DNA of 39,009 nt, taken from a virus. Taxonomy: Duplodnaviria > Heunggongvirae > Uroviricota > Caudoviricetes. The translations under genes and the position numbers were made by a program. Shown in pieces: positions 1 through 39,009 of this stretch; position 1 is the first letter of the stretch, and each line of letters opens with the position of its first letter. The notes beneath the pieces are model-generated. The model saw only the letters and a list, made by a program, of their open reading frames with translations, did no database searches and was not told the DNA's origin. Location: IMG/VR virus record IMGVR_UViG_2540341091_000002, positions 1 to 39,009 of that record. One strand, given 5' to 3'.

Positions 1-90
1 TTGCCTCCCCCCCGTTGATGGGTAAAATAGCCGCAATTTTTCGTTTTCAACAAGCGCGGCGCGATGCCGCTTACTCAAGAAGAAAGAATT

Positions 91-165
91 ATGACGTTGT
101 CTCCTTATTTGCAAGAGGTGGCGAAGCGCCGCACTTTTGCCATTATTTCTCACCCCAATAATTAA
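91..165 (+). pseudogene. prfC: 5' fragment of peptide chain release factor 3 gene (prfC) truncated at the prophage junction (attL side)
   Basis: ORF at 91 encodes [22 protein letters not shown], which I recognise as the RF3 N-terminus; it diverges to NN-stop exactly where the GTP-binding P-loop (DAGKTT) should follow. Recognition is from memory, not a search. Confidence 0.6.
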
Positions 166-319
166 GCCTAAATTAAAGCTCTTTTACTCTTTCAAAATCC
201 TTTCAGTTAATTGAGGTTGAGTAATATAACTCATTTAAATACATTTAGTTATGTGGCTTCTTTAATTGAAAATTCTTTCATGTAACTTTAAATCGATCTG
301 CTTGCTTTCATCAAAAATC

Positions 320-378
320 TGTACATATGCTTGTACATAATGTACAAAGCAGCAGAGGTGTTTTGCGATTTGTACAAG
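320..378. repeat. Four copies of TGTACA(W)(R) immediately upstream of the integrase start; possible regulator or integrase binding sites
   Basis: tgtacata at 320 and 332, tgtacaaa at 341, tgtacaag at 371; similar GTAC-core palindromes occur in the cI-cro operator region. Confidence 0.45.
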
Positions 379-385
379 GTGAGTA

Positions 386-1609
386 ATGGCGCTGTCTGAT
401 GCGTGGTTGCGTTCAGTCGTTGGAAAGGAACGTGATAAGGTTTTGGTTAAATCCGATCGTGATGGTCTGTCTGTCAGAGTATCACCGAAAGGTCGCGTAG
501 TGTTCCAATATCGTTATCAATGGGCAGGGAAAGGTGAGCGTCTTGATATCGGAACTTACCCGGCAACTGGATTAAAAGAGGCCAGAGAAGAAGTTATCCG
601 TCTCCGTGGTGAACTCGAGTCAAACCGTAATCCACGATTGGTCAAGCAGGCTGAAAAACGAAAAGCTACTGAAGCCATGACGGTAGAGTCTGTGATCCGT
701 GCCTGGTATGAAGCATATTGTGTAAAAAATAAAAAAGGCTCTGAACAGATACTCCGCTCGTTTGAGCTGCACCTGTTCTCTAAAATCGGGAATATCCCTC
801 ACGATGCAGCTACATTGCATGATTGGTTAGAAGTCCTGGAGCCTCTTAGCACTAAGACTCCAGCAATAGCAGACCGATTGCTAATTAACGCAAAGCAGGC
901 CCATGTCTGGGCGTATAAGAGAAAGCTCATTGAAACTCGCCCGCTGTCGGATATCACGGGTAAAGATATGGATATCCGTAAAGGTCAGAAGAAACGGTTT
1001 CTGACACATGATGAAATTAAAATCCTTTATGCTGCGATCGATGGTTCTCGAATGGTTCCTAAATACCGGGCCTTCATTAAACTATTGCTGCATTTTGGCT
1101 GCCGTAGTTCAGAGCTAATTACCGCCAGGGTGGACGATTTTGATTTCATTAATAAAGTATGGACTGTACCACCAGAACGACATAAGACTGGGGAGATAAC
1201 GGGCGAACCGCTAAAACGGCCCATTATTGAACCGGTTGAAGAGCTTATAAAGTACGCTATTTCTATGAACAATGGTTCCGATATGCTTTTTACTAAGGAA
1301 GGAAGCAGGGAACCCGTTGGTCGGACATCATTGCAGTCGCTGCCTTACAATTTAATGCAGTATGCATGGCGGCGTTTGGGGTATCAATTCCCTCATTGGT
1401 CTCTGCATGATTTGAGGCGAACAGCACGAACAAACTTTTCTGATCTTACTGCGCCTCATATCGCAGAAATAATGCTCGGTCATAAACTGCCGGGGGTATG
1501 GCAAGTTTATGACAAGAGTGATTATTTAGAAGAACAGCGTAAAGCCTACCAGGCATGGTGGGAGAGAGTTGAATCGATTGTTACTTGTTCTGGTTCAGAC
1601 ACCAACTGA
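386..1609 (+). CDS. int: Tyrosine site-specific integrase (P4-type family)
   Basis: 407 aa; N-terminal arm-binding-like region (VSPKGRVVFQYRYQWAGKGERLDIGTYP) and C-terminal catalytic region with HDLRRTARTNF and LGHK...VYD motifs typical of phage integrases; sits next to the disrupted host gene. Confidence 0.9.
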   Translation: MALSDAWLRSVVGKERDKVLVKSDRDGLSVRVSPKGRVVFQYRYQWAGKGERLDIGTYPATGLKEAREEVIRLRGELESNRNPRLVKQAEKRKATEAMTVESVIRAWYEAYCVKNKKGSEQILRSFELHLFSKIGNIPHDAATLHDWLEVLEPLSTKTPAIADRLLINAKQAHVWAYKRKLIETRPLSDITGKDMDIRKGQKKRFLTHDEIKILYAAIDGSRMVPKYRAFIKLLLHFGCRSSELITARVDDFDFINKVWTVPPERHKTGEITGEPLKRPIIEPVEELIKYAISMNNGSDMLFTKEGSREPVGRTSLQSLPYNLMQYAWRRLGYQFPHWSLHDLRRTARTNFSDLTAPHIAEIMLGHKLPGVWQVYDKSDYLEEQRKAYQAWWERVESIVTCSGSDTN

Positions 1610-1781
1610 CAGTTTGCATATTTTGAACGCAATAAAATATGACAGTCCGCTTTGAGCGAGGAGCGGATATATGATGTTTAGAAAACGCGCGATTTGCAGT
1701 TAAGCAATCTAAGTTACTGATGTACTATACTGGAACTGCTGGCCAGTTTGTGTTGAACACCATCATTATCACAATAAGGAA

Positions 1782-3035
1782 ATGAAAGTCGAAATGAATA
1801 CTAAACTTTTGGCCTATTTAAACAATGAGTTACATGGAGTGTGGATAGATAGTGAAAATCGTAATATCCACATAATACTTAAATCAAGCCTTCCTATAAT
1901 TAAATCCGTCTGGTCAGGAGCACCTATCCACTTTTTGGTAGGTTTATCTACTAAAAATATACTAGTGATTGGGATGTTGATTGAAGATAATGTCGATAAT
2001 CCATTTTTACTAGCCTATCCACCAAGAGAGGCAGATGAAATTAAAGGGCTGGATTTGTTATTGTCAGGCGCTTATGATGGTATTCTATTATCATTTTTTG
2101 ACTCGCATACAATGCGTGTTATGGACCTGAAAATAAAAGTTTCGGAAAATTTACCGTGTGAATGTTTAAAAAAATTTTGTGCTAATTCATATTCTCTCAA
2201 TTCAGGATTTAGGGAAGGTAATGAAGCAATGGATGAATTCTGCAACAATGCTTTGACTGGTAACGAGAAAATAATTAGTCTGCCACTAAGTGTAATCGAT
2301 AAAAAATCTTACCTAGCAAGTGTTCATGAACCAAACGATACCGTATTAACATATGAATTTAGCGTCAGTGAAAACGGCTCTGAGGGATATGAGCAGGAAG
2401 CTCTTATATACCATGCTTTGCGGCAGGTCTTTTCACCGGAGGAAGTGTTTTTTTCTCCAGATATTATTGAGGGTAATAAAAAAAGAGAACTAGTTGATAT
2501 TCTTATTGTAGAAAATGACTATGTATTATCTATACAGTCTAAAGCATCATCTTTGATTGAAATGGGTTTAAAATCTCATGAAAAGCTTTGTAGCATGTAT
2601 AAGAAAAAAGCATTGCAAGGGATCGATCAGGTTAAAGGCGTTATCCCAATTCTAAATAATGATGTGGTTATTAATTATGACGGGAGGGAATGCTTAATAA
2701 AGCGCAGAAAGGGTATTTATCATTTAGTGATAATCTCAGATCTTGTTTTAGAGAAAGAAGGTGCTGAAAAGATTTATAACGAAATTAGCAACCTTAAAGA
2801 GTCAAAAGGGGCGAAAGTTTTAGTTATGAGCCTTGAAGGTCTTGTAAATTTTATAAGACTATCAAGATTAAATAAAAGAATGTTTTGGGCAATGCTGGAG
2901 ACTAAATACAAGTTCAGCATAAAAAACCGTACAATTTTAATTAGAGATATCGACTCTAGCCAAGAGAATAATCTACCATTACTTGCCACTGATCAATACC
3001 TATCACTTCTTCGAGGTACGGGAAAATTAAAATAA
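1782..3035 (+). CDS. Hypothetical AT-rich cargo protein; possible PD-(D/E)xK-like nuclease core (candidate defence or abortive-infection gene)
   Basis: 417-aa ORF with AAGGA ribosome-binding site upstream; composition is markedly AT-rich (roughly one-third G+C by eye, against about half in flanking phage genes); residues ~200-255 (EQEALIYHAL...ELVDILIVENDYVLSIQSK) fit an alpha-beta-beta-beta D...QxK pattern; no family recognised. Confidence 0.6.
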   Translation: MKVEMNTKLLAYLNNELHGVWIDSENRNIHIILKSSLPIIKSVWSGAPIHFLVGLSTKNILVIGMLIEDNVDNPFLLAYPPREADEIKGLDLLLSGAYDGILLSFFDSHTMRVMDLKIKVSENLPCECLKKFCANSYSLNSGFREGNEAMDEFCNNALTGNEKIISLPLSVIDKKSYLASVHEPNDTVLTYEFSVSENGSEGYEQEALIYHALRQVFSPEEVFFSPDIIEGNKKRELVDILIVENDYVLSIQSKASSLIEMGLKSHEKLCSMYKKKALQGIDQVKGVIPILNNDVVINYDGRECLIKRRKGIYHLVIISDLVLEKEGAEKIYNEISNLKESKGAKVLVMSLEGLVNFIRLSRLNKRMFWAMLETKYKFSIKNRTILIRDIDSSQENNLPLLATDQYLSLLRGTGKLK

Positions 3036-3220
3036 ATTGTATCAATGATACTGTTGCCACGTATCGAGACTGGCTTATGAACGGAAGGGTTTTCCAGCAG
3101 TTCAGCGACCGGAGCTGCACATCGATGCCGGATTGTGCCTGCAATTATGTACTTGGCTAAGAGGTGCTGCTGGCTCTGGATAGAATAACCCTAACGTCCA
3201 AAGAGCGCGCATTTTCATGT

Positions 3221-3261
3221 AAAAAAATAAATAGCTTGTCTGCTCTTGATACAGAGCAGAC
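3221..3261 (-). terminator. Rho-independent terminator ending the leftward early operon
   Basis: Perfect 9-bp inverted repeat gtctgctct/agagcagac with 6-nt loop (3238-3261); on the minus strand it is followed by a T-rich run (plus-strand aaaaaaataaata at 3221-3233). Confidence 0.5.
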
Positions 3262-3320
3262 AGTCAGATCTGTTTGGCTTGTGCCATAGATGTGCCAGCT
3301 CACATTTGAGCTAATGTTTG

Positions 3321-3515
3321 TTACTCAATTACTCCTGCAAACCTGTATATCTTACGTGATGCCCATTTATTTGGGCAGGATTTAATATCAGGATCTGGAA
3401 AATCAGGCCGATATTTCTGACCAGTCCTCCGGTTTACACTGTTCCAGCGAAGCACCGTCGATATTGAAACGCCACAGAATTCGGCGACTTGTTTTGTTGT
3501 CATTAAGTTGTTCAT
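3321..3515 (-). CDS. Excisionase-like helix-turn-helix DNA-binding protein (AlpA/TorI/Xis type), probable recombination directionality factor
   Basis: Start taken at internal Met (MNNLMTTKQVAEFCGVSISTVLRW...), which forms an ATGA overlap with the upstream gene stop; small HTH protein at the end of the operon near int. Confidence 0.6.
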   Translation of the reverse strand: MNNLMTTKQVAEFCGVSISTVLRWNSVNRRTGQKYRPDFPDPDIKSCPNKWASRKIYRFAGVIE

Positions 3516-3859
3516 TGTTGACCCTCCTGTGGTTGTGCAGTTGAAAGACTCATGCCCGCGCGTTGTTGCCAGACGACCCAGCCGAGAGCCATATCCCACG
3601 CCATGTACTCGTTATCACCGTTTTTTGCTCTCCGACGATCGACTGTTTTACCGAAACGCTTTTCCATAAATAATTCATAGGCTGCGCGTTCATCTGGCTC
3701 AACTTCCAGAGATGCCAGTGCAATCCGTGCCAGTTCTAAATCATCTTCAAGCTCAGCGCGAATCTCAGCGAATGCACTCTGTGTTAAGGCGAACTCAATG
3801 CTCTGCACTTTATTCCGTGCGCGCTCAAGCAGTGCATGGTAGTTAATTTCGGTTGTCAT
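3512..3859 (-). CDS. Hypothetical prophage early protein
   Basis: 115-aa ORF translationally coupled to neighbours on both sides; acidic helical sequence; no family recognised with confidence. Confidence 0.55.
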   Translation of the reverse strand: MTTEINYHALLERARNKVQSIEFALTQSAFAEIRAELEDDLELARIALASLEVEPDERAAYELFMEKRFGKTVDRRRAKNGDNEYMAWDMALGWVVWQQRAGMSLSTAQPQEGQQ

Positions 3860-4734
3860 ACCCCTACCTCTTCGAATTTCAATACCAATTGATCACCCCA
3901 GATTTCACATGACTCTGAACACGAGCCGGTATCGAATCGCCTGGCCTGTACCATCGCCTGATACAAATTTCTGTAGTCGCTGTTGGCAGACATTCTGGCA
4001 ATTCCGTCAAGCGTCAGGTGACCACGGTACATAACGTCTTTACCTGTTCTGCGATGACCATCCCTGACGTGTTTGCCTGTAACCAGCTCATTAAAAACTC
4101 GCATCAGACCAGGTTCGTCTTTACATGCAAGCCCCAGCTTTTGCGTTGACTTTTTGATGCAGAAAACACAGTTCCCGAGATGCTCCGGGATTTGCAAATC
4201 AAAAGGTTGTTTTCGCCACCACCGGATAACATCCGACTTATCAAAATCTGACAGTTCGGCAAGATACCGGACGCCCGATTTCGGTTTCAGCCTACGGGGT
4301 TCGTCTGCACGAATACCCAGCCATGTGATGTAATTACCTCGCCCGAAATGGTTATCGCAGTATTTCGTGAAAGGGATGAGTTTTAGCCTGTCAGTACAGA
4401 ACGCGCCGCCGATGTATGGCGTGCCGTACTTTTTAACCATGTCCATAAACGGTTTAAGTACCGGCATTCGCGTCTGAATATCCTTTGGCTCCCATTCTGT
4501 ATAACCATTTGGCTGCCCAAGCTCAGGATTGATATCGACCTGCAACACAGTTAGTGGTATGCCCCAGAACTTCACAACCTCCCGAATAAAGCGGTATGTC
4601 AGCGGATGTTCGCAACCGGTATCCATAAAGATGTAGCAGACGTTATTGCCAGCCTTTCTTTGTTCTTCCATCAGGTGAACAAGATATGCAGATGTTCTCC
4701 CGCCGGAAAAACTAACTACATGAGTTATGCACAT
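3856..4734 (-). CDS. Phosphoadenosine phosphosulfate (PAPS) reductase family protein, PP-loop ATP pyrophosphatase fold
   Basis: 292 aa; N-terminal VVSFSGGRTS PP-loop-like motif typical of the PAPS-reductase family; 10-bp overlap with upstream gene. Confidence 0.75.
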   Translation of the reverse strand: MCITHVVSFSGGRTSAYLVHLMEEQRKAGNNVCYIFMDTGCEHPLTYRFIREVVKFWGIPLTVLQVDINPELGQPNGYTEWEPKDIQTRMPVLKPFMDMVKKYGTPYIGGAFCTDRLKLIPFTKYCDNHFGRGNYITWLGIRADEPRRLKPKSGVRYLAELSDFDKSDVIRWWRKQPFDLQIPEHLGNCVFCIKKSTQKLGLACKDEPGLMRVFNELVTGKHVRDGHRRTGKDVMYRGHLTLDGIARMSANSDYRNLYQAMVQARRFDTGSCSESCEIWGDQLVLKFEEVGV

Positions 4735-7386: not shown

Positions 7387-8061
7387 TTAGGCCTTTATTG
7401 TGTATCTTCTTGGTTTTCCCGAGAAAATCACTGTACCAATTATAGAGCAATTACCGTTAATCTTAATGTAAGGCTCAGGCCAGTTTGGGTTTAATGCTTT
7501 GAGATAACGCTGTGTTCCATCTTCTATCAACCGCTTGAAGGTGGTTTCGCCTGAATCGTGCATCAATGCAATAACGTCGTCACCGTGGCAGGCAGGGACT
7601 TCAGGATCAACAAAAATCATGTCTCCCGGGCGGTACTCATCAATCATTGAATCACCAATCACCCGCAAGATATAAGTCATTTCGCCACAGGGTACAGGGC
7701 AGGGATAAGTTTCTGCTGTGCTCAAATCAACCTCAGAATAGCCAACTTCTTTCCATGCTCCGGCCTGTACCCATGATATGACAGGGACTAACGTTATTTG
7801 TTTGTTAGTGATTGAAACATCAGGTTTTTTTGTGATGTTCGTGGTCTGGTGTTCTTGATCAAGCCATCCGACAGGCAGGTCGAAACATTTTTCGATGTGC
7901 CTTGCCATGCTGTCACCGATATTTTTAGTAGCACCATCTCCCATAAACCTGCTGGTCTGGGTTGGCTCGCGATCAATCATGGTGGCAAAGGAAGAATTCC
8001 CGCCAACACCATCTCTCAGTTTTCTGGCGTTAGACCGCCGGATGTCATGGACTGTTTTCAT
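7387..8061 (-). CDS. cI: CI-like prophage repressor (N-terminal HTH plus C-terminal S24 LexA-type autopeptidase domain)
   Basis: 224 aa; C-terminal VIGDSM...FKRL gives the Ser/Lys dyad context of S24 peptidases; divergent from a Cro-like gene; no Shine-Dalgarno before the ATG, consistent with a leaderless PRM-type transcript. Confidence 0.85.
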   Translation of the reverse strand: MKTVHDIRRSNARKLRDGVGGNSSFATMIDREPTQTSRFMGDGATKNIGDSMARHIEKCFDLPVGWLDQEHQTTNITKKPDVSITNKQITLVPVISWVQAGAWKEVGYSEVDLSTAETYPCPVPCGEMTYILRVIGDSMIDEYRPGDMIFVDPEVPACHGDDVIALMHDSGETTFKRLIEDGTQRYLKALNPNWPEPYIKINGNCSIIGTVIFSGKPRRYTIKA

Positions 8062-8151
8062 AACGAAATTAAAACCTTTGTACCGATAGGGTACAAGTAT
8101 CTTGAAGGTTCATCTCAATCATGTAATATGTATATCGGAGGTACATATTGT
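8062..8151. promoter_or_regulatory. Divergent promoter/operator region between the repressor and Cro-like genes
   Basis: Palindrome ttgtacc-gatag-ggtacaa at 8078-8096 plus related GTAC-core motifs (catgtaatatgtat, ggtacatattgtat); a related motif (ggtacattgtcaag) lies downstream of cI near 7335. Confidence 0.5.
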
Positions 8152-8352
8152 ATGAAAGCGTATTGGGACTCTTTAACCAAAGAACAGCAGGGCGAGTTGG
8201 CCGGAAAAGTTGGCTCAACACCAGGCTATTTACGGCTGGTTTTCAATGGTTATAAAAAAGCCAGTTTTGTGCTGGCTAAAAAACTTGAGCAATGCACGTC
8301 AGGTGCAATTACGAAATCTGACTTAAGACCGGATATCTATCCGAAAGATTAA
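8152..8352 (+). CDS. Cro-like / YdaS-like small HTH regulator
   Basis: 66-aa ORF starting at ATG 8152 with GGAGG upstream; divergent from cI; basic HTH-like sequence. Confidence 0.65.
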   Translation: MKAYWDSLTKEQQGELAGKVGSTPGYLRLVFNGYKKASFVLAKKLEQCTSGAITKSDLRPDIYPKD

Positions 8353-12696: not shown

Positions 12697-13506
12697 ATGA
12701 ATAATCTGATGGTTATTGATGGTATTGAAGTTCGTCGTGATGCTTATGGGCGTTACAGCCTGAACGATCTGCACAGGGCAGCCGGGGGAGAACAAAAAAA
12801 CCGCCCGAAATACTGGCTCTCCAATAAGCAAACCTGTGAATTGATTGAACAACTTTTCACCGAGGGTGGAATTCCGCCTCTGGAACAAAATCAACCAGTT
12901 AGCGTCATTAATGGCGGAAATAACCAGGGGACGTATGTCTGCAAAGAACTGGTGTATGCCTATGCAATGTGGATCAGCCCGTCATTCCATCTGAAGGTGA
13001 TCCGTACTTTCGATATGGTAACCAGCGCACCGGAAAAATTATCCGGACAGGCTGCTGACAAGATGCAGGCTGGTGTGATTCTGCTGGACTTTATGCGTCG
13101 GGAGTTAAACCTGTCTAACTCTTCAGTGCTTGGTGCCTGTCAGAAACTCCAGGAGGCTGTTGGCTTACCGAATCTGGCACCGCGCTATGCCATTGATGCT
13201 CCTGCTGATGCACACGATGGCTCAAGTCGCCCGACACTGTCACTGAGTGCACTGCTGAAACAGTATGGTATCCGCCTGACGGCTAATCAGGCATATCACC
13301 AGATGGTGAAGCTGGGGATCGTCGAGCAGCGCGAACGATACAGCCGTACCGGGATTAACAACATCAAAAAATTCTGGTCGCTGACGGCGAAAGGCTGCAT
13401 GTTCGGCAAGAACATCACCAGTCCCGCAAATCCGCGCGAGACGCAGCCGCATTTCTTCGAATCCCGATTCCCTGAGCTGTTAAAGCTGCTCGATACCGTT
13501 CATTGA
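12697..13506 (+). CDS. KilA-N domain protein (antirepressor-like)
   Basis: 269 aa; N-terminal IDGIEVRRDAYGRYSLNDLHRAAGG segment typical of KilA-N/Bro-N proteins; paralogous N-terminus to the 17686 gene. Confidence 0.65.
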   Translation: MNNLMVIDGIEVRRDAYGRYSLNDLHRAAGGEQKNRPKYWLSNKQTCELIEQLFTEGGIPPLEQNQPVSVINGGNNQGTYVCKELVYAYAMWISPSFHLKVIRTFDMVTSAPEKLSGQAADKMQAGVILLDFMRRELNLSNSSVLGACQKLQEAVGLPNLAPRYAIDAPADAHDGSSRPTLSLSALLKQYGIRLTANQAYHQMVKLGIVEQRERYSRTGINNIKKFWSLTAKGCMFGKNITSPANPRETQPHFFESRFPELLKLLDTVH

Positions 13507-13507
13507 G

Positions 13508-14503
13508 GTGACCGTGAGAGCACTACTGACCCCTGAAATTGCCCCGCGTATGGGGATCGTATTGTTCAGGCCAGGTTCAGAGCTGATGCCCCTGTTTATG
13601 CAGGGGCGTGTCCTGCTGGAGCCTGAGCCAGAACGTTATTCATCTTTCGCCAGTGGTGCCGTTCCGGCGGCATCACAACCGCTGGCGGATGATCCTGCCG
13701 TTCGGGCCGTGTTCCGCAATGAGGCAGTGATCCGTCGTGCTGGTGGCGTGGAATGTCTTGAAAGCTGGTTACTTCGTGAAAAAGGCTGCCAGTGGCCTCA
13801 TTCCGACTGGCACAGCGAGAACATGACCACAATGCGACACGCTCCGGGCGCAATCCGTCTGTGCTGGCACTGCGATAACCAGCTGCGCGATCAGTTCACG
13901 GAACGGCTGGAATCAATGGCAACGGATAACTGTGCCCGCTGGGTGTTGTCTGTAGTCCGTCGGGATCTCGGTTTTGATGATAACCATGCCGTGACAATGC
14001 CGGAACTGTGCTGGTGGCTGATTCGTAATGACCTGGCGGATGCCTTACCTGAAAGCGCAGCCCGTAAGGCGCTGAGATTACCGAAACCTGTTGTGCCGTC
14101 TGTCACCCGGGAAAGTGACCTTGTGCCTTCGGTTCCTGCCACCAGCATCATCCAGGATAAAGCGAAAAAGGTGCTGGCGCTGAAAGTGGATCCGGAGTCG
14201 CCGGAGTCTTTTATGTTACGCCCAAAACGCCGCCGCTGGGTTAATGAAAAGTACACGCGCTGGGTTAAGACACAGCCGTGTGCATGTTGTGGAAAGCCTG
14301 CTGATGATCCCCACCACCTGATAGGCCACGGTCAGGGTGGAATGGGTACAAAAGCGCATGACCTCTTTGTGTTGCCTTTGTGCAGAAAGCATCACGACGA
14401 GCTGCATGCGGATACCGTGGCATTTGAAGAAAAGTATGGCTCTCAGCTGGAGCTGATATTTCGTTTTATCGATCGTGCGCTGGCAATTGGCGTATTGGCG
14501 TAA
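13508..14503 (+). CDS. DUF968-type prophage protein with C-terminal HNH-like Cys/His motif
   Basis: 331 aa; C-terminal CACCGKPADDPHHL...LCRKHHDELH cluster; commonly found upstream of Q in lambdoid prophages. Confidence 0.6.
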   Translation: MTVRALLTPEIAPRMGIVLFRPGSELMPLFMQGRVLLEPEPERYSSFASGAVPAASQPLADDPAVRAVFRNEAVIRRAGGVECLESWLLREKGCQWPHSDWHSENMTTMRHAPGAIRLCWHCDNQLRDQFTERLESMATDNCARWVLSVVRRDLGFDDNHAVTMPELCWWLIRNDLADALPESAARKALRLPKPVVPSVTRESDLVPSVPATSIIQDKAKKVLALKVDPESPESFMLRPKRRRWVNEKYTRWVKTQPCACCGKPADDPHHLIGHGQGGMGTKAHDLFVLPLCRKHHDELHADTVAFEEKYGSQLELIFRFIDRALAIGVLA

Positions 14504-14516
14504 GTGGAGAACGAGC

Positions 14517-15269
14517 ATGAACCTTGAAGCCTTACCAAAATATTACTCCCCAAAATCTCCAAAATTGAGCGATGACGCACCGGCGACAGGCTCAGGTGGT
14601 TTAACGATTACGGATGTGATGGCTGCGCAGGGGATGGTGCAGTCGAAAGCACCGCTTGGGTTTGCCTTATTCCTGGCAAAAGTTGGTGTTCAGGATCCTC
14701 AATTTGCGATTGAAGGTCTGCTCAATTACGCGATGGCACTGGATAACCCGACATTGAACAAATTGAGTGAAGAAACCCGGTTACAGATCATCCCTTACCT
14801 TGTGAATTTTGCCTTTGCTGATTATTCCAGGTCTGCGGCAAGTAAGGCTCGCTGTGAGCATTGTGCTGGTACTGGATTTCATAATGTATTGCGCGAAGTG
14901 GTGAAACACTCCAGAAGCGGGGAATCTGTTATCAAGGAAGAGTGGGTGAAGGAACTATGTCAGCATTGCCATGGTAAGGGAGAAGTCAGCACAGCGTGCA
15001 GAGGGTGTAAGGGTAAAGGTATTGTCCTGGATGAAAAAAGAACCCGGCTTCATGGTGTGCCTGTTTATAAGATTTGTGGGCGTTGCAATGGCAACCGGTT
15101 TAGCCGTTTACCAACCACACTGGCGCGGCATCATGTCCAGAAGCTGGTACCGGATCTGACGGATTATCAGTGGTACAAAGGATATGCAGATGTCATTGAT
15201 AAACTGGTGACAAAGTGCTGGCAGGAAGAAGCATATGCTGAGGCGCAATTAAGAAAAGTGACGAGATAA
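14517..15269 (+). CDS. Q: Late-gene antitermination protein Q
   Basis: Start at MNLEAL with GGAGA upstream; four CxxC pairs (CEHCAG, CQHCHG, CRGCKG, CGRCNG); positioned just upstream of a promoter/terminator pair and the lysis genes. Confidence 0.8.
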   Translation: MNLEALPKYYSPKSPKLSDDAPATGSGGLTITDVMAAQGMVQSKAPLGFALFLAKVGVQDPQFAIEGLLNYAMALDNPTLNKLSEETRLQIIPYLVNFAFADYSRSAASKARCEHCAGTGFHNVLREVVKHSRSGESVIKEEWVKELCQHCHGKGEVSTACRGCKGKGIVLDEKRTRLHGVPVYKICGRCNGNRFSRLPTTLARHHVQKLVPDLTDYQWYKGYADVIDKLVTKCWQEEAYAEAQLRKVTR

Positions 15270-15295
15270 ATGATTTTCGCCGAAGATGGCGACAT

Positions 15296-15340
15296 GATTC
15301 TTGCATTTTTCAAAAAATCTGGTTAGGATTTTCCTAACGA
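15296..15340 (+). promoter_or_regulatory. Candidate late promoter (PR-prime equivalent) and Q-utilisation region
   Basis: ttgcat and a taggat-like element with near-17-bp spacing between Q stop and the downstream terminator; assignment positional and weak. Confidence 0.3.
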
Positions 15341-15378
15341 TGGGCTTTGTATGTCTGCCGTTAACGAAATCATAACAA

Positions 15379-15400
15379 ACCTCGCTTCGGCGGGGTTTTT
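15379..15400 (+). terminator. Rho-independent terminator downstream of Q (tR-prime equivalent)
   Basis: Stem cctcgc / gcgggg closing a ttcg tetraloop, followed by ttttt. Confidence 0.6.
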
Positions 15401-15419
15401 GCTTTTCTGGAGGTCAATA

Positions 15420-15677
15420 ATGCAGGGCGAAAAGCAGCAGCCATATTTTTTTAACCCTGGTATGACTGTTGAACAGCTTGAAGACTGGCTGGAGCAGCAA
15501 AAGCTTCATCTAAGCCGCTATAACCGTCTGGTAAAAGAAAAAGCAGAGCTTGAAGAACGGCTCAGTGATATTTCTGTGGAAATTGAACGAATGTCTGCTG
15601 GTGGTTTTAACGGAAAGTTGAGTTTCCCTTGGGAGTCAAGTTCGCTTCTGAGAAATCATCAACAGGGTAGTGTTTGA
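15420..15677 (+). CDS. Small late-expressed hypothetical protein (coiled-coil-like), cargo position between Q terminator and lysis genes
   Basis: 85-aa ORF from ATG 15420 with GGAGG 6 nt upstream; the longer track ORF would span the terminator. Confidence 0.5.
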   Translation: MQGEKQQPYFFNPGMTVEQLEDWLEQQKLHLSRYNRLVKEKAELEERLSDISVEIERMSAGGFNGKLSFPWESSSLLRNHQQGSV

Positions 15678-15756
15678 CTGAAATAATAAACAGAATGTCA
15701 TTAAGATCCCTTCCCCTCATATCTGAGAGGACCAACAGCAATTAAGAGGGGGCTAA

Positions 15757-16143
15757 ATGTCCGATCCGATTTCCGGTACTGGGCTGGCTGGTGGTGCCCT
15801 GACGGGGGCCAGTGTTTATGGACTGCTGACCGGAACTGATTACGGCGTTGTATTTGGCGCATTTGCAGGGGCTGTATTCTACATAGCAACAGCAGCAGAT
15901 CTGAGTGCATCGCGCCGACTGGCATATTTTATCGTGTCATATATTGCCGGGATTCTTTGCTCTGGGTTGGTTGGCTCCAAGCTGGCGAACTTGACCGGAT
16001 ACAGTGATAAACCTCTGGATGCTATTGGTGCCGTAATCGTCTCTGCTTTAGCCGTTAAAATCCTGACGTTCCTGAATAATCAGGATATCGGCTCGCTGGT
16101 GGCGCTCATAACGCGCCGGGGAGGTTCAGGTGGAGCTAAATGA
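15757..16143 (+). CDS. Putative holin (Gly/Ala-rich multi-pass membrane protein)
   Basis: 128 aa with several hydrophobic segments and charged C-terminus; strong RBS (agagggggc); first gene of the lysis cassette. Confidence 0.6.
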   Translation: MSDPISGTGLAGGALTGASVYGLLTGTDYGVVFGAFAGAVFYIATAADLSASRRLAYFIVSYIAGILCSGLVGSKLANLTGYSDKPLDAIGAVIVSALAVKILTFLNNQDIGSLVALITRRGGSGGAK

Positions 16144-16411
16144 CCCGACAGCAACTATAAATGCGCTGTTATGTGCTTGTGTTGTTATTACTCTGATGTT
16201 TTATCGTCGTGGTGATTCGCGGCATCGTCCTTGGGTTTCACGTTTAGCCTGGCTGATTACTGTTACATACAGTGCTGTTCCGTTGGCCTATCTCTGTGGG
16301 ATTTATCCCCATTCCTCATGGCCCATTATCGTGGCGAACACTATTTTTCTTTCCGTGCTGGTGGCCGTAAGAGGCAACGTTGCACGTCTGGTTGATCATC
16401 TGAGGCACTAA
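16130..16411 (+). CDS. Second small membrane protein of the lysis cassette (holin/antiholin-like)
   Basis: 93 aa with about three hydrophobic helices; overlaps the upstream gene end and abuts the endolysin start. Confidence 0.5.
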   Translation: MELNDPTATINALLCACVVITLMFYRRGDSRHRPWVSRLAWLITVTYSAVPLAYLCGIYPHSSWPIIVANTIFLSVLVAVRGNVARLVDHLRH

Positions 16412-17025
16412 TGAACCAACAATTATTTCAAAAGGCGGCTGGTATTAGCGCCGGGCTGGCTGCGCGCTGGTTTCCGCACATTGATGCGGCGATGAAGGAA
16501 TTCGGCATTACAGCACCAGCGGATCAGGCAATGTTTATTGCTCAGGTAGGCCATGAGTCGATGGGGTTTAGCGCCGTAGTTGAAAATTTTAACTACACAC
16601 CATCTGCGCTTGTGGCGACGTTCGGAAAGAGGATCACACAGCAGCAGGCTGATGCCCTTGGCAGAACATCCGGACATGCAGCTCGTCAGGATGCTATTGC
16701 CAATCTTGTGTATAGCAACCGGCTGGGTAACAAAGCACCCGGTGATGGCTGGAAATATCGCGGTAGAGGATTAATTCAAATCACTGGCCTCCATAATTAT
16801 CGCATCTGTGGCGCGGCGCTGAAGTTAGATCTGGTGACTTCACCTGAACAACTGGAGCAGGATCTACAGGCCGCGCGCTCAGCTGCATGGTTCTACACAT
16901 CTAAAGGCTGCATGGTCTACGGTGCCGATATTAATCGTGTTACGCGCATCATTAACGGCGGTCTGAACGGTATTGAGGATCGTAAGATTCGATACAACAA
17001 GGCGCGGGCGGCGCTGCTGGTATGA
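16411..17025 (+). CDS. Endolysin, glycoside hydrolase family 19-type
   Basis: 204 aa; AQVGHESMGF and GRGLIQITGLHNY motifs characteristic of GH19 lysozyme-like enzymes; located between holin and spanin genes. Confidence 0.8.
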   Translation: MNQQLFQKAAGISAGLAARWFPHIDAAMKEFGITAPADQAMFIAQVGHESMGFSAVVENFNYTPSALVATFGKRITQQQADALGRTSGHAARQDAIANLVYSNRLGNKAPGDGWKYRGRGLIQITGLHNYRICGAALKLDLVTSPEQLEQDLQAARSAAWFYTSKGCMVYGADINRVTRIINGGLNGIEDRKIRYNKARAALLV

Positions 17026-17483
17026 AGACGAGTTATTGGGCGCTCATTTTAACGTTTATTGCTTGTATTGCTGGTGGTCTTGTCTGGTCAGCTAATCATT
17101 ACCACAATAAAGCCATTGAATACAAAAAACAGCGCGATGAAAACGCTATGGCATTAGATTCGGCTATGGCGACGATCTCTGATATGCAGAAGCGTCAACG
17201 TGACGTAGCAGAACTCGATGCCAGATATACAAAGGAGCTTGCTGATGCTAACGCCACTATCGAAAGTCTCCGTGCTGATGTTTCTGCTGGTCGTAAGCGC
17301 CTGCAAGTCTCCGCCACCTGTGCAAAGTCAACGACCGGAGCCAGCAGCATGGGCGATGGAGAAAGCCCAAGACTTACAGCAGATGCTGAACTCAATTATT
17401 ACCGTCTCCGAAGTGGAATAGACAGGATAACCGCGCAGGTTAACTACCTGCAGGAGTACATCAGGGCTCAGTGCCTGAAATAA
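17022..17483 (+). CDS. Rz-type inner-membrane spanin (i-spanin)
   Basis: 153 aa; N-terminal transmembrane helix followed by coiled-coil periplasmic region; follows endolysin with ATGA coupling. Confidence 0.8.
   Translation: MKTSYWALILTFIACIAGGLVWSANHYHNKAIEYKKQRDENAMALDSAMATISDMQKRQRDVAELDARYTKELADANATIESLRADVSAGRKRLQVSATCAKSTTGASSMGDGESPRLTADAELNYYRLRSGIDRITAQVNYLQEYIRAQCLK
17245..17421 (+). CDS. Rz1-type outer-membrane lipoprotein spanin (o-spanin) embedded in the +1 frame of Rz
   Basis: Signal peptide ending in lipobox VVSAC followed by proline-rich mature region (KSPPPVQSQRPEP); fully nested within Rz. Confidence 0.75.
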   Translation: MLTPLSKVSVLMFLLVVSACKSPPPVQSQRPEPAAWAMEKAQDLQQMLNSIITVSEVE

Positions 17484-17685: not shown

Positions 17686-18216
17686 ATGAAGTACCCAACA
17701 GTTATTGTCAATGGTGTGTCCGTTCGTGTTGATGAGGATGGACGCTACAACTTAAACGATCTCCATGCAGCAGCAGTTGCAAATGGAGAGGCTACAGAGC
17801 AACAGCGCCCAAGCCAGTTTTTGCGTAGCGCGCAGATAAAACGCTTCATAAAAGCACTGGAGGCCAAAGTGCAAAAAAGCACTTTGGAACAAATTCAGCC
17901 ACTTAAAATAATCAAAGGTGGTGCAGAACCAGGTGTGTGGGGTGTTGAACTTCTGGCAATCAGATATGCAGCATGGATTAAGCCGGAATTTGAAATCGAA
18001 GTTTATGAAGTTTTCAAAACGGTTGTCCGTCTCGGCGTTGGCGCAATGTCCCGTCTGAATAGAATCGATCACATCATCAATACTGAAACCAAAGCGATAA
18101 GCCAGTGCGCAAGCCAAATGGCTAAGTGGGGCGTTGGTGGGCGAAAAAGATTGCTTCATGTTGCACGTGAGAGAGCGGCAAATGAAGTGCAAATGTATTT
18201 GCCCGGAATGGTGTGA
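17686..18216 (+). CDS. KilA-N domain protein (second copy), moron position between lysis and packaging genes
   Basis: 176 aa; N-terminus VNGVSVRVDEDGRYNLNDLHAAA parallels the 12697 gene; isolated by terminators and non-coding DNA. Confidence 0.6.
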   Translation: MKYPTVIVNGVSVRVDEDGRYNLNDLHAAAVANGEATEQQRPSQFLRSAQIKRFIKALEAKVQKSTLEQIQPLKIIKGGAEPGVWGVELLAIRYAAWIKPEFEIEVYEVFKTVVRLGVGAMSRLNRIDHIINTETKAISQCASQMAKWGVGGRKRLLHVARERAANEVQMYLPGMV

Positions 18217-35618: not shown

Positions 35619-36269
35619 ATGCATCGTATAGACACGAAAACTGCGCAGAAGGATAAGTTCGGCGCGGGTAAGAACGGTTTTACCCGTGGTAACCCCCAGA
35701 CCGGCACGCCTGCCACCGATCTGGATGATGACTACTTTGACATGTTGCAGGAGGAGCTTTGCAGCGTTGTGGAGGCGTCCGGTGCCAGCCTGGAGAAGGG
35801 GCGGCACGACCAGCTGCTTACCGCGCTTCGTGCGCTGCTGTTAAGCCGCAAGAATCCGTTTGGTGATATCAAATCGGATGGCACGGTGAAAACGGCTCTC
35901 GAAAACCTTGGTTTGGGAGAAGCGGCGAAAAGGGATGTAGGCACAGGAGAAAATCAGATACCGGATATGTCAGCCTGGAAAAGAAATCCGAGTTCTAATC
36001 GCTGGAGAAAATTGCCTGATGGAACCATCATTCAAATGGGAATATCAGCATCAGGGCCATTAGGCTCACCTGTAAATATCACCCTGCCGATATCTTTCAG
36101 CAATACCAATTATTGTGTTGTTGCATCGTACGATAATGCACGGTCAGGTGTGTCAACAATGGTTAGTTTTGCAGCATTACCTGTTTCACCATCGCAATTT
36201 TCCCTGATGTCATCTGTGACTGAGCAAGGAATAAATCCTTTTGCTTACTGGATTGCTTTTGGAGATTGA
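35619..36269 (+). CDS. Tail fibre protein (constant N-terminus fused to the variable C-terminal cassette currently in the expressed orientation)
   Basis: 216 aa; the crossover site lies within the codons for ENLGLGE; followed by a tail-fibre assembly gene. Confidence 0.75.
35896..35921. repeat. Left recombination site of the invertible tail-fibre segment (gix/pix-like, 26 bp, dyad-symmetric)
   Basis: ctctcgaaaacc-tt-ggtttgggagaa; half-sites match in 9 of 12 positions; the reverse complement shares a 14-bp perfect core with the site at 37701. Confidence 0.6.
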
Positions 36270-36272
36270 TAA

Positions 36273-36692
36273 ATGGACAGATACTTCTATTCACAAAAAG
36301 AAAATGGTTTTTTTACCGATTTAAATAAAGCACCTTCAGATGCTGTTGAGATAACCACGGATGAATGGCTATCACTACTGGATGGTCAGGATAATGGCAT
36401 GAAAATAGTCAGCAATCAGGAGGGATATCCGGTTTTGACAGAGCAACCACCTTTATCAAAAGAAAACCTTATTGCATTGGCAGAGTTGAAAAAAGGAAAA
36501 CTTATTAATGAAGCCAACGAGCACATGAACAGCAGGCAATGGCCTGGTAAAGCGGCTATTGGTCGTCTGAAAGGTGAGGAACTGGCGCAATATAATTTGT
36601 GGCTGGATTATCTGGACGCACTGGAGCTGGTCGATACTTCCAGTGCGCCAGATATTGAATGGCCTACGCCTCCGGCAGTTCAGGCCAGATGA
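36273..36692 (+). CDS. Tail fibre assembly protein (Tfa), expressed orientation
   Basis: 139 aa; C-terminus DIEWPTPPAVQAR resembles Tfa C-termini; directly follows the tail fibre gene. Confidence 0.8.
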   Translation: MDRYFYSQKENGFFTDLNKAPSDAVEITTDEWLSLLDGQDNGMKIVSNQEGYPVLTEQPPLSKENLIALAELKKGKLINEANEHMNSRQWPGKAAIGRLKGEELAQYNLWLDYLDALELVDTSSAPDIEWPTPPAVQAR

Positions 36693-37257
36693 TATCCGGC
36701 GCGGTGCTGGTATCTGTTACCGTCACCGCGTCAATGTAATCCAGCACGGCGTTAAGTCGGGTTGTTTCTGCCTGCGTCAGTTTCCGTCCGGCCTGCAATT
36801 TCAGTTGAATCAGACTAATGGAAGCCATTGCAGTATCAATCAGTGACTGACGTTGTGCTTCTGCCGCGTCTACTGCGGCGCTATGCTGTGCCTCGGTATC
36901 CGTCACCCATTTCTCACCATCCCATTTATCGTATGGCGTTAACGGTGAAAGCGTGACATAACCGTCTTTGATGGCACCGATATAATCCACTGTAACAGCT
37001 GCGCCATTTTCTGTTGAGTAAACAGTCTCATTGCGATGGTCTTCTTCATGGCTCCATCCCTTACCCGTAAATACTGCCACTTTTCCCGGAATGTTTTCGC
37101 CAGGGTCAATACCAGTGGAACAGGCGGGCATACTTACGCCAGTATTAATATATTCATCAGACCAGCCCGTATACTCAGATGTTTCAGCATCATAATAAAA
37201 ACAACGCATATCGCCCGGCACTGTAGCCAGCCCATTTTCATCAAAAACAGGTTTCAT
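36664..37257 (-). CDS. Tail fibre assembly protein (alternative Tfa, inverted orientation)
   Basis: 197 aa; C-terminus DIIWPELPEA parallels the plus-strand Tfa; convergent 3' ends overlap, as in Mu U/U' and e14 tfaP/tfaE. Confidence 0.8.
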   Translation of the reverse strand: MKPVFDENGLATVPGDMRCFYYDAETSEYTGWSDEYINTGVSMPACSTGIDPGENIPGKVAVFTGKGWSHEEDHRNETVYSTENGAAVTVDYIGAIKDGYVTLSPLTPYDKWDGEKWVTDTEAQHSAAVDAAEAQRQSLIDTAMASISLIQLKLQAGRKLTQAETTRLNAVLDYIDAVTVTDTSTAPDIIWPELPEA

Positions 37258-37726
37258 TATTTAGCCCTCACCAGAAAGTTAAATGCAATATTTCGCGGTC
37301 TGACTGCAACAAAATTCACACCATCACCCACAGAGTTACTGGTGAAATTAAATCGTGAAAATCCTGGCTGATTTCCGGCGATGCCATCATGAAAGTTAAT
37401 TGCGTGTCCCGCACCTTCGCCTATATTCCCGGCAAACTGAGAAAAGTTTGTAGCGTTCTGCCAGCTTAATAATTCGCGACCACCGTCTACACCTCGCCCG
37501 TCATCCCAGACACGAATGAAATCACCGCGTGCGTCAGGTAATGCCAGCGCCGGAAACACTTTCGCCAGCACAGGGTAATCAGTGGCAGAAAATTTCGCCC
37601 CGTTGAACTTCAAAAACACCATACTGGACCAGCTGTCGATTACAGTATTTGGCATTGCAGCGGACGGCCAGAAGAACGGAACGCCAATAGCTGGAGAACC
37701 TTCTCCCAAACCAACGTTTATGAAAA
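37257..37726 (-). CDS. Silent alternative tail-fibre C-terminal cassette (no own start; expressed only after inversion). Boundaries approximate
   Basis: Open frame continues from the right crossover site (encoding GLGEG, matching LGLGE in the expressed gene); the track ORF's apparent start MSGNIGANP lies inside the IS2 end and is artefactual. Confidence 0.6.
37701..37726. repeat. Right recombination site of the invertible tail-fibre segment (inverted copy of the 35896 site)
   Basis: ttctcccaaaccaacgtttatgaaaa; first 14 bp identical to the reverse complement of the left site, 19 of 26 overall. Confidence 0.6.
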
Positions 37727-37780
37727 TGCAGAAATAACGAGCAAATGGCATCATTCCTGCTTTTGTCAGTGGATTTGCCC

Positions 37781-38686
37781 CTATATTTCCAGACATCTGT
37801 TATCACTTAACCCATTACAAGCCCGCTGCCGCAGATATTCCCGTGGCGAGCGATAACCCAGCGCACTATGCGGATGCCATTCGTTATAATGCTCGAACGC
37901 CTCTGCAAGGTTCTTTGCTGCCGTTAACCCGTCTGGTTTGGGCATGATACTGATGTAGTCACGCTTTATCGTTTTCACGAAGCTCTCTGCTATTCCGTTA
38001 CTCTCCGGACTCCGCACCGCCGTGTTCTTCGGTTCAAGTCCCAACATCCGGGCGAACTGGCGTGTTTCATTAGCCCGGTAGCATGAACCATTATCCGTCA
38101 GCCACTCCACTGGAGACGACGGAAGATCGTTGCCGAAGCGGCGTTCCACCGCTCCCAGCATGACGTCCTGTACTGTTTCACTGTTGAAGCCGCCGGTAGT
38201 GACCGCCCAGTGCAGTGCCTCACGATCACAGCAGTCCAGCGCGAACGTGACACGCAGTCTCTCTCCGTTATCACAGCAGAACTCGAACCCGTCAGAGCAC
38301 CATCGCTGATTGCTTTCTTTCACGGCCACTCTGCCTGTATGTGCCCGTTTCGATGGCGGTACAGCAGGTTTTCGCTCAAGCAACAGCGCATTCTGGCGCA
38401 TGATCCGGTAAACACGTTTGGCATTGATCGCAGGCATACCATCAAGTTCTGCCTGTCTGCGAAGCAGCGCCCATACCCGACGATAACCATACGTGGGCAG
38501 CTCTCCGATAACATGGTGTATACGGAGAAGCACATCCGTATCATCAGTGTGACGACTGCGGCGGCCATCCATCCAGTCATCGGTTCGTCTGAGAATGACG
38601 TGCAACTGCGCACGCGACACCCGGAGACAACGGCTGACTAAGCTTACTCCCCATCCCCGGGCAATAAGGGCGCGTGCGCTATCCAC
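37781..38686 (-). CDS. insD: IS2 transposase OrfB (InsD; DDE integrase-like catalytic domain)
   Basis: 301 aa beginning [16 protein letters not shown]; recognised as IS2 InsD. Confidence 0.9.
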
Positions 38687-39009
38687 TTTTTTGCCCGTCC
38701 ATATTCAACGGCTTCTTTGAGGAGTTCATTTTCCATCGTTTTCTTGCCGAGCAGGCGCTGGAGTTCTTTAATCTGCTTCATGGCGGCAGCAAGTTCAGAG
38801 GCAGGAACAACCTGTTCTCCGGCGGCGACAGCAGTAAGACTTCCTTCCTGGTATTGCTTACGCCAGAGAAATAACTGGCTGGCTGCTACACCATGTTGCC
38901 GGGCAACGAGGGAGACCGTCATCCCCGGTTCAAAGCTCTGCTGAACAATTGCGATCTTTTCCTGTGTGGTACGCCGTCTGCGTTTCTCCGGCCCTAAGAC
39001 ATCAATCAT
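38644..39009 (-). CDS. insC: IS2 OrfA (InsC; HTH DNA-binding component of the transposase)
   Basis: 121 aa beginning [33 protein letters not shown]; start codon at the last three bases of the window. Confidence 0.9.

Follow-up and report, generated by a model that had tools for sequence, protein, structure and literature searches.

The 39,009 nucleotides analysed here (virus record IMGVR_UViG_2540341091_000002, positions 1 to 39,009, called the window below) contain an SfV/ST64B-like myovirus prophage in which a small open reading frame (ORF), ORF85, lies between the terminator of a pR'-type late promoter and the lysis genes. A sequence-only reading of this DNA had given the slot to the small protein alone. 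Family-wide, ORF85 turns out to be one half of an obligate, convergent pair of genes overlapping at their 3' ends, whose other half, a gene of the ECs1072 family, has been deleted here. The model that we tentatively put forward combines the two halves: the ORF85 product would be a Q-dependent, lytic-phase antagonist of a partner expressed in the lysogen, and it would be orphaned in the window.

A fixed pair of convergent genes

The mapping of ORFs on both strands of diverged loci revealed a minus-strand gene of about 148 amino acids (aa), convergent with the ORF85 homologue and sharing sequence with it at the 3' end. Its family is phrog_5286 and NCBIfam NF033230, 'ECs1072 family phage-associated protein', a hypothetical equivalog. 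The full partner is present beside every ORF85 homologue that is 76% identical or less to the window copy, that of ST64B included, and a search from the partner side gave 80 viral loci, all 80 with a convergent ORF85 homologue and with an overlap of 59-86 nucleotides (nt). Two further and more diverged E. coli types, found by exact-protein look-up, have the same pair behind a Q of the PF06323 (phage-82) type. The pair occurs with three Q families (PF03589, Sb49-type and PF06323), with at least three unrelated holin types (PF16931 together with PF05449, the P22 gp13-like Sb51, and PF16080) and with GH19, lambda-R-like and PF00959 endolysins, at a distance of 0.4-2.3 kb from the lysis genes and with variable genes in between. 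The sole constant neighbour of the ORF85 family is the ECs1072-family gene. Judged by gene order, the two genes form a fixed two-gene module across the prophages of Enterobacterales.

These associations bear directly on the possibility that ORF85 is a lysis accessory, that is, a cytoplasmic protein, produced immediately ahead of the holins, that adjusts their timing and is similar in size and location to T4 RIII. Among the late cistrons the gene comes first, in the window 80 nt ahead of the holin, and its product is small, soluble and helical. However, the family accompanies unrelated holins and endolysins, other genes and the opposite-strand gene separate it from the lysis genes, its constant neighbour is the partner, and ORF85 has neither a transmembrane segment nor a dual start. 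The pairing with varied Q, holin and endolysin modules excludes a dedicated lysis accessory, and we hold the explanation as a whole to be improbable. The sequence-only reading had named a conserved lysis accessory of related phages as the outcome that would overturn it; conservation at this position in related phages is indeed what we find, but the gene moves with its partner and keeps to no fixed type of holin, endolysin or Q.

The reading frame itself is well delimited. The mechanically longest ORF, of 108 aa from an ATG at 15351, crosses the terminator and was rejected; it is unsupported because the PHROG profile and the homologues start at its M24, which is position 15420. N-terminally extended database entries (ST64B Sb50 of 119 aa, a Kluyvera entry of 104 aa) just translate the hairpin. 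Residues 1-84 of ORF85 align with positions 1-84 of the 85 positions of phrog_3501 (E 1.2e-54). A word-indexed search gave 59 homologous clusters, every one from Enterobacterales and unnamed, and an exhaustive search of 1.84 billion representatives with a hidden Markov model profile gave 31 clusters at 50% identity, of 45-126 aa, among which there are no fusions to known domains. The Shine-Dalgarno sequence is conserved as CTGGAGG or CTGGGGG in the homologous loci. Over 34 aligned homologues the N-terminal half is near-invariant (MQxxKQQPYFFNPGMTxEQLEDWLxQQKxHLxxxNRLVKEKAALEERL) and the tail is looser.

The ratio of nonsynonymous to synonymous substitution rates (dN/dS) over codons 1-58 is 0.14 (Nei-Gojobori, 34 distinct coding sequences). 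By bin, the corresponding ratio of the proportions of nonsynonymous and synonymous differences (pN/pS) rises from 0.20 (codons 1-37) through 0.38 (codons 38-58) to 0.72 (codons 59-85), while pS drops from 0.49 to 0.28 between the first and the last of these bins. Codons 1-37 lie outside any element of the partner. One could suppose that ORF85 is non-coding and that its conservation comes only from the leader and terminator RNA and from the antisense 3' end of the partner, and codons 38-85, which do overlap partner elements, show the raised pN/pS and lowered pS that this would predict; but the low pN/pS and high pS of the 37 codons free of such elements, the conserved Shine-Dalgarno sequence and ATG, and a confident helix model speak otherwise, and a search of 15000-16000 with Rfam gave only sub-threshold, terminator-driven matches. 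We find this explanation hardly credible. At the level of sequence, these data establish ORF85 as a genuine gene of the translated type.

The structure modelled by AlphaFold2 with the homologue alignment is a single helix over residues 17-60 (predicted local distance difference test, pLDDT, about 90-95), preceded by an extended, conserved N-terminal peptide and followed by a poorly defined tail. This agrees with the earlier description of the protein as coiled-coil-like. The product would thus be small and cytoplasmic, with a conserved peptide at the N terminus joined to an amphipathic helix of about 44 residues, and the model suggests the build of a binding or oligomerising protein rather than that of an enzyme. 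The homology and structure search proposed with the sequence-only reading gave the full-length phrog_3501 match and this one long helix: sequence searches of Pfam, NCBIfam, PADLOC and the PDB returned nothing above noise, and Foldseek with the model against the PDB returned one match only (E 4.7), a single helix being uninformative.

The partner carries its own signals. A promoter-like TTGATA-18-CACAAT lies just upstream of its ATG, inside an inverted repeat, TTGATATTGT-N15-ACAATATCAA, whose 10-bp arms covary between lineages (TTGAT/ATCAA versus CTGAT/ATCAG); it is seen at 4634-4668 of locus L054, with equivalents in L071, L093, L100 and L102, and the palindrome looks like an operator. The partner's terminator on the minus strand, AGCCGCTCTTCAAGAGCGGC followed by TTTTTCTTT, is the reverse complement of ORF85 codons 39-48 (KEKAALEERL) and folds in 15 of 15 partner-containing variants, at -8.5 to -17.9 kcal/mol (-12 or lower in 14 of them). 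This antisense terminator explains the rise of pN/pS and the fall of pS in ORF85 from codon 38 onwards, and its position implies that the partner mRNA would be antisense to about the last 145 nt of the ORF85 mRNA. A bidirectional tR', considered as the terminator of the partner, was dropped once the dedicated one had been found inside ORF85. Most full cassettes have in the gene overlap a palindrome, TGGGATCCCA, that reads as W-D-P from either strand (...FPWDPSP... in ORF85, ...DWDPKENS... in the partner); at 15643-15652 of the window (equivalent to 4404-4413 of locus L089) it is mutated to TGGGAGTCAA.

Both families are in the databases only as hypothetical proteins, and it appears not to have been described before that they pair obligately, that their genes overlap at the 3' ends and that a terminator is concealed in a coding sequence. 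In the ST64B record (AY055382, 36146-36869, our locus L002), Sb50 is given as 119 aa with a start upstream of the terminator, and the ECs1072-family gene (36429-36869, minus strand) is without annotation; tblastn shows it to be intact. We found no literature on the function of sb50, of ECs1072 or of either family, the matches to sb50 being primer names and strain numbers. ECs1072 makes one appearance, in a microarray table; its transcripts were detected, and were growth-phase regulated, in uninduced cultures of O157 Sakai (PMC2241611).

The late control region and the cargo slot

The range 15296-15677 comprises the pR'-type promoter, its leader, the tR'-type terminator and ORF85 (Table 1). Upstream of it, the product of the Q gene matches PF03589 (Antiterm, E 2.7e-54), contains a DnaJ-type CXXCXGXG zinc finger, belongs to phrog_127 and is labelled antitermination protein by RefSeq in an identical prophage. 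The TTGCAT of the promoter begins 32 nt past the Q stop codon; a simple consensus promoter scan did not list it because its -10 hexamer is under the scan threshold. Its order, TTGCAT-17-TAGGAT-6-AACGATGGG, reproduces that of the lambda pR' sequence which we fetched, TTGACT-17-TAAATT-6-AACGATGGG, with an identical nonamer and identical spacing. The role of such a -10-like initial transcribed element in pausing the polymerase is established lambda Q biology. The tR' hairpin has 9 pairs, 5 of them GC, in the terminator scan, and the same hairpin is present in the minimum-free-energy and centroid folds.

Q, a promoter with a -10-like pause element and a terminator together have the layout of a lambda-type, Q-dependent late transcription unit, of which ORF85 is the predicted first cistron. 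A polymerase that starts from pR' at about 15336 would halt at the terminator unless modified by Q, and, as read directly from the sequence, the expression of ORF85 would require that tR' be read through by pR'-started polymerase and would hence be Q-dependent, as the sequence-only reading had held. Since the ribosome-binding site begins 5 nt past the T tract, production of the protein should be all but confined to the lytic phase. The ORF was also placed rightly between terminator and holin, its ATG being 15 nt past the T tract and the first holin starting 80 nt downstream of its end. Two genes with KilA-N domains flank the Q-lysis region, one (12697-13506) preceding a DUF968/HNH gene (13508-14503) and the other (17686-18216) directly after Rz.

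Table 1. Features of the late control region and of the cassette, in window coordinates
Feature	Position	Strand	Description
Late antiterminator Q gene	14517..15269	+	250 aa with the RefSeq start; frame open from GTG 14475
pR'-type late promoter	15301..15329	+	-35 TTGCAT 15301-06, 17-nt spacer, -10 TAGGAT 15324-29; sequence reading
AACGATGGG	15336..15344	+	6 nt past the -10; putative transcript start and sigma70-dependent pause element for Q loading
tR'-type intrinsic terminator	15377..15405	+	AAACCTCGC-TTCG-GCGGGGTTT followed by TTGCTTTTC
Shine-Dalgarno GGAGG	15410..15414	+	5 nt before the ATG; sequence reading
ORF85	15420..15677	+	85 aa, soluble; ATG 15420, stop 15675-15677; N-terminal QQPYFFNPGM, then long helix (residues 17-60); phrog_3501
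T7 run in codons Y9-F10-F11	15446..15452	+	recurrent frameshift site in relatives
Decayed partner terminator	15534..15563	-	antisense to ORF85 codons 39-48
Partner remnant (pseudogene)	15607..15729	-	39 codons; partner residues 83-143; overlaps the last 23 ORF85 codons
Lysis cassette	15757..17483	+	holin PF16931 15757-16143; holin PF05449 16130-16411; GH19 endolysin 16411-17025; Rz 17022-17483
Rz1-like ORF embedded in Rz	17218-17421	+	

Shiga toxin and other conversion genes are carried in this slot, downstream of the late terminator and ahead of the lysis genes. The sequence-only reading had seen it as a slot for late-expressed cargo and as free of stx here, and both statements stand. Between Q and the holin there are 487 nt, in which ORF85 is the sole gene and in which neither stxA nor stxB is found. 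SfV and 15 Stx2c-converting phages share with the window only 15200-15362, the end of Q and pR', at 90-94% identity; they have their own terminator at the equivalent place, followed by unrelated genes. ST64B has a different Q (Sb49), and its match to the window, at 80%, is confined to 15377-15680, a stretch that opens with the first base of the terminator and closes with the ORF. Because the ST64B match begins at the terminator behind another Q, tR' moves with ORF85 and not with Q. These alignments confirm that exchange takes place at the junction of Q and the lysis genes, which is both a mosaic joint and a slot for cargo.

Of 15 upstream sequence types, 13 have a GC hairpin with a T tract in the corresponding position, with differing stems; before CTGGAGG-N5-8-ATG most relatives have CCTCGC/GCGGGG, CCCTGCC/GGCGGGG, GCCTCGCC/GTGCGGGGC or CCCGC/GCGGG. 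An alignment-based test of covariation in tR' was muddied by register shifts, and the hairpin of each variant was used instead. Salmonella phage 118970_sal3 and Escherichia phage SKA5 have the whole region of 601 bp, 97.8-97.9% identical, and it recurs, at a coverage of at least 80%, in 100 of 5,426 complete E. coli genomes, where its annotation is always 'hypothetical protein'.

The same slot is occupied by stx in phages with this Q and pR', and ORF85 would be expressed in dependence on Q, so that it might be thought of as stand-alone late cargo, an effector on a host or eukaryotic target released at lysis as Stx is. Against this, ORF85 is a single helix of 85 aa without signal peptide or toxin-like domain; its family is tiny (31 clusters among the 1.84 billion proteins) and never occurs without the partner outside the clade of the window. 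The 15 nt between T tract and ATG hold no promoter of its own, the only promoter-like match nearby (15659-15687) being at the 3' end of the ORF, and there is no terminator after it in 15678-15756. We consider such an effector very improbable. The same absence of own promoter and terminator withdraws from ORF85 the status of a self-contained moron that it had been given.

Other loci show further traffic in this region. In L067, L077, L079-L081 and related loci, the place of the terminator, about 60-90 nt ahead of the ORF85 homologue, is taken by what looks like the 3' end of a tRNA (GGTTCGATTCCGTCAACCAGCACCA); some Stx phages similarly have tRNA genes before stx. In L089 (3872-3893 and 4633-4654; also in L091 and L092), direct repeats of the terminator tail and Shine-Dalgarno sequence (GGGGCTTTTRCGTTTCTGGAGG) flank the cassette, and the downstream repeat is followed by an ORF of three codons (MHQ*). 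This arrangement suggests insertion or excision by recombination between terminator-Shine-Dalgarno linkers; as a general boundary of the cassette these repeats were rejected, as they are present only in L089-type loci. Megablast of the full E. coli cassette of L089 gave no match in the complete E. coli genomes; with blastn, the matches were again the 100 genomes of the orphan type and no others. L059 has at 2659-3882, between Q and the ORF85 homologue, a 407-aa STAND/AAA ATPase (PF20703 nSTAND1, E 3.5e-10; weak PADLOC match to PDC-S59), a further sign that the slot gathers defence-like cargo.

With respect to the prophage as a whole, the prfC insertion site mentioned in the sequence-only reading is consistent with its left end (1-3035), where the tyrosine integrase (386-1609) adjoins yjjG and a fragment of 23 codons, annotated as a truncated hypothetical protein, at the place where prfC would be. 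In strain YD786 an otherwise identical late region is at a different locus, beside a dusA fragment, and the same late module therefore sits in prophages at different attachment sites. At the other end, the tail-fibre assembly region (about 36200-39009) is matched only piecewise by many E. coli prophages, none of the complete E. coli genomes covering 80% or more of it, and the best matches overlie an IS3-family transposase annotation.

The orphan cassette and the possible role of ORF85

In the clade whose ORF85 is at least 91% identical to that of the window, only residues ~83-143 of the partner are left. The remnant in the window has an internal deletion of 22 codons (66 bp), and tblastn and blastn place the end of DNA homology to the full cassettes at about 15706. 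It is still recognised by the family profile (hhalign probability 97.5%, E 8.5e-12), with N and L in place of the family-invariant D134 and W135, and it is overlooked by annotation pipelines. The promoter palindrome is missing as a result of the partner deletion. In the window type (48 loci), GCA GAG replaces GCC GCT, which makes A43E in ORF85, and the antisense fold reaches only -5.0 kcal/mol. The window has neither an intact opposite-strand partner nor a working antisense terminator; with the partner cut to a remnant and its terminator broken, the partner is a pseudogene and ORF85 is alone. Without its cognate target in cis, ORF85 would be either a relic or a stand-alone antagonist that is useful against lysogens of the full cassette.

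In the partnerless, window-type cassettes ORF85 is disrupted by frameshifts or nonsense codons in 4 of 31 unique sequences (L050 has both). In the partner-containing ones ORF85 is disrupted in 8 of 71 unique sequences, through about six independent events, and the partner in 2 of the 71. The ORF85 disruptions are nonsense codons and frameshifts in the T7 run, which is T6 in L049-51 and L134 and T8 in L052 and L118; these length changes could be homopolymer sequencing errors, decay or a slippage-prone phase variation. Per codon, ORF85 is disrupted more than the partner (binomial p ~0.03 on independent events, own calculation), which fits, in a manner that is suggestive only, selection for the partner in the lysogen and a need for ORF85 in lytic growth alone.

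From the layout, and from the ECs1072 transcripts of uninduced O157 Sakai, we think that the partner is a function expressed in the lysogen, probably a prophage-borne immunity or exclusion protein and possibly a DNA-binding one. ORF85 could then be the Q-dependent antagonist of this partner, a reading to which we give a qualified preference. Once Q is active, the ORF85 product would bind and neutralise the partner, and the convergent late transcription, together with antisense pairing of the two messengers, would shut off the expression of the partner. The orphan gene would either be a relic without target or be retained because, even on its own, an antagonist would allow growth of the phage on full-cassette lysogens.

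There is a precedent for such an arrangement in phi80, whose taiEcA and atiEcA genes, a tail-assembly-inhibition system, were described as a 'non-contiguous operon' of defence and counter-defence (He et al. 2024, Nat Commun; PMC11364771). TaiEcA (orf63) is encoded on the opposite strand inside the Q operon and is constitutively expressed; AtiEcA (orf64, 76 aa, late strand) neutralises Tai by binding, as TaiSalB binds AtiSalB; the expression of Q lowers the Tai level, and mutants without atiEcA survive only through the inactivation of tai (PMC11364771). When transplanted alone into HK106, atiEcA enables this phage to infect phi80 lysogens (PMC11364771).

The precedent of the transplanted ati gene matters for the idea that ORF85 is a functionless relic in the window, intact only since too little time has passed after the deletion of the partner. 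The decay of the partner and of its terminator is what this idea expects, the frameshifts and nonsense codons in the partnerless cassettes are in keeping with it, and the substitutions within the clade are too few for dN/dS of partnerless copies to be interpreted or to show selection. Yet the orphan form is intact in most copies, it is spread over 100 complete E. coli genomes and is also found in Salmonella phages, its disruption rate is no higher than that of partner-containing cassettes, and the phi80 result offers a selective reason for keeping an orphan ORF85. We regard a mere relic as quite unlikely.

A regulatory switch would be another way to read the pair. The partner would be a DNA-binding repressor of its own promoter, and perhaps of other phage or host promoters, in the lysogen, and ORF85 would be a late anti-repressor or co-factor; in the window the switch would be gone and ORF85 left over. 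The palindromic, operator-like promoter and a weak helix-turn-helix hint speak for this possibility, which we rate as unlikely.

The antagonist reading has to be set against several observations that weigh against it. In about 10% of the partner-containing cassettes ORF85 is broken and the partner intact, which is awkward if ORF85 is indispensable, though expected in defective, domesticated prophages. The similar disruption of ORF85 with the partner and without it gives no sign of relaxed selection after partner loss. The conservation of ORF85 codons 38-85 is partly explicable by the partner's terminator and coding constraints. No experiment or homology ties either protein to defence: PADLOC (PADLOC-DB 2.0) has no match for ORF85 or for the partner, and the searches of Pfam, the PDB and BFVD are negative too. 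Within the TaiEcA subfamily, which the comparison covered, hhalign gives the partner a probability of 0.25% against the single TaiEcA sequence (phi80 orf63) and, profile to profile, of 0.09% against 14 Tai sequences; ORF85 against AtiEcA (phi80 orf64) has a probability of 0.5%, that is, no homology. Finally, the phi80 genes are divergent and overlap at their 5' ends, whereas the genes here are convergent and overlap at their 3' ends.

For this prophage, then, the 85-aa gene would be neither a toxin nor a lysis gene, but an orphaned half-cassette, and its value lies in the cassette to which it points. The module is present in many prophages of Salmonella, Citrobacter, Klebsiella, Enterobacter and E. 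coli, the O157 namesake ECs1072 included. In its layout, a lysogen-strand gene has an operator-like promoter of its own, the late strand carries the Q-dependent partner, and within the latter a terminator is encoded antisense; this matches the logic, shown recently, of a prophage that carries a defence and switches it off in its own lytic cycle. Could the pair of phrog_3501 and ECs1072 families be a previously undescribed immunity and counter-immunity (or toxin and antidote) system under Q control, with ORF85 as founder of a late anti-defence family and the orphan copy as a stand-alone counter-defence? We consider this extended claim rather doubtful.

Comparison with known systems

The control region is built like the pR'-6S RNA-tR' unit of lambda: the -35/17/-10 layout is the same, AACGATGGG follows 6 nt past the -10, and an intrinsic terminator then awaits read-through by Q. 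It differs from lambda in its Q, which is of another family (PF03589 with a zinc finger), in its leader of about 65 nt instead of about 194 nt, and in the gene that starts 15 nt past the terminator, S being about 400 nt further on in lambda. With SfV and the Stx2c phages it has in common the 3' end of Q and pR', 90-94% identical up to 15362, and a terminator at the equivalent position; unlike in the Stx2c phages, the cargo is no toxin but the late-strand half of a two-gene cassette, to whose module the terminator belongs.

The term moron is reportedly used for lambdoid phages in the sense of Juhala and colleagues (2000), with lambda bor as an example. The cassette resembles a moron in that it is an extra gene inserted between conserved modules, and the lost partner, on the opposite strand and with promoter and terminator of its own, fits the definition; ORF85, with neither, depends on the late operon.

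The closest parallel is that of Tai and Ati, through which this type of system, an opposite-strand prophage function in the Q operon with a small late antagonist, is already known from one study (He et al. 2024, PMC11364771). In both cases a gene on the opposite strand interrupts the Q-controlled late operon beside a small late-strand gene (76 aa in phi80, 85 aa here), the genes overlap, and the carriers are lambdoid prophages of Enterobacterales. Besides the orientation of the overlap, the differences are in position, Tai/Ati following the lysis genes and preceding cos while the ORF85 pair lies between tR' and the lysis genes; in the size of the opposite-strand protein, 148 aa for the partner and 203 aa for TaiEcA; and in the deletion of the partner in the window. 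In L054, a 158-aa ORF on the minus strand after the lysis genes (7732-8208) begins with MQSEDDIGVVLRLHLVTEKIIEAW, which resembles the motif DDDxGTTLRLHLLCERMVEAW of the phi80 TaiEcA family, and this phage may carry a Tai-like gene besides its ORF85/ECs1072 cassette. On these comparisons it is conceivable, and it is the position that we adopt with reserve, that the ORF85 pair works like Tai/Ati without being a member of it. If so, the cassette adds a new defence and anti-defence pair to those of the prophages and a second, independent example of the non-contiguous operon.

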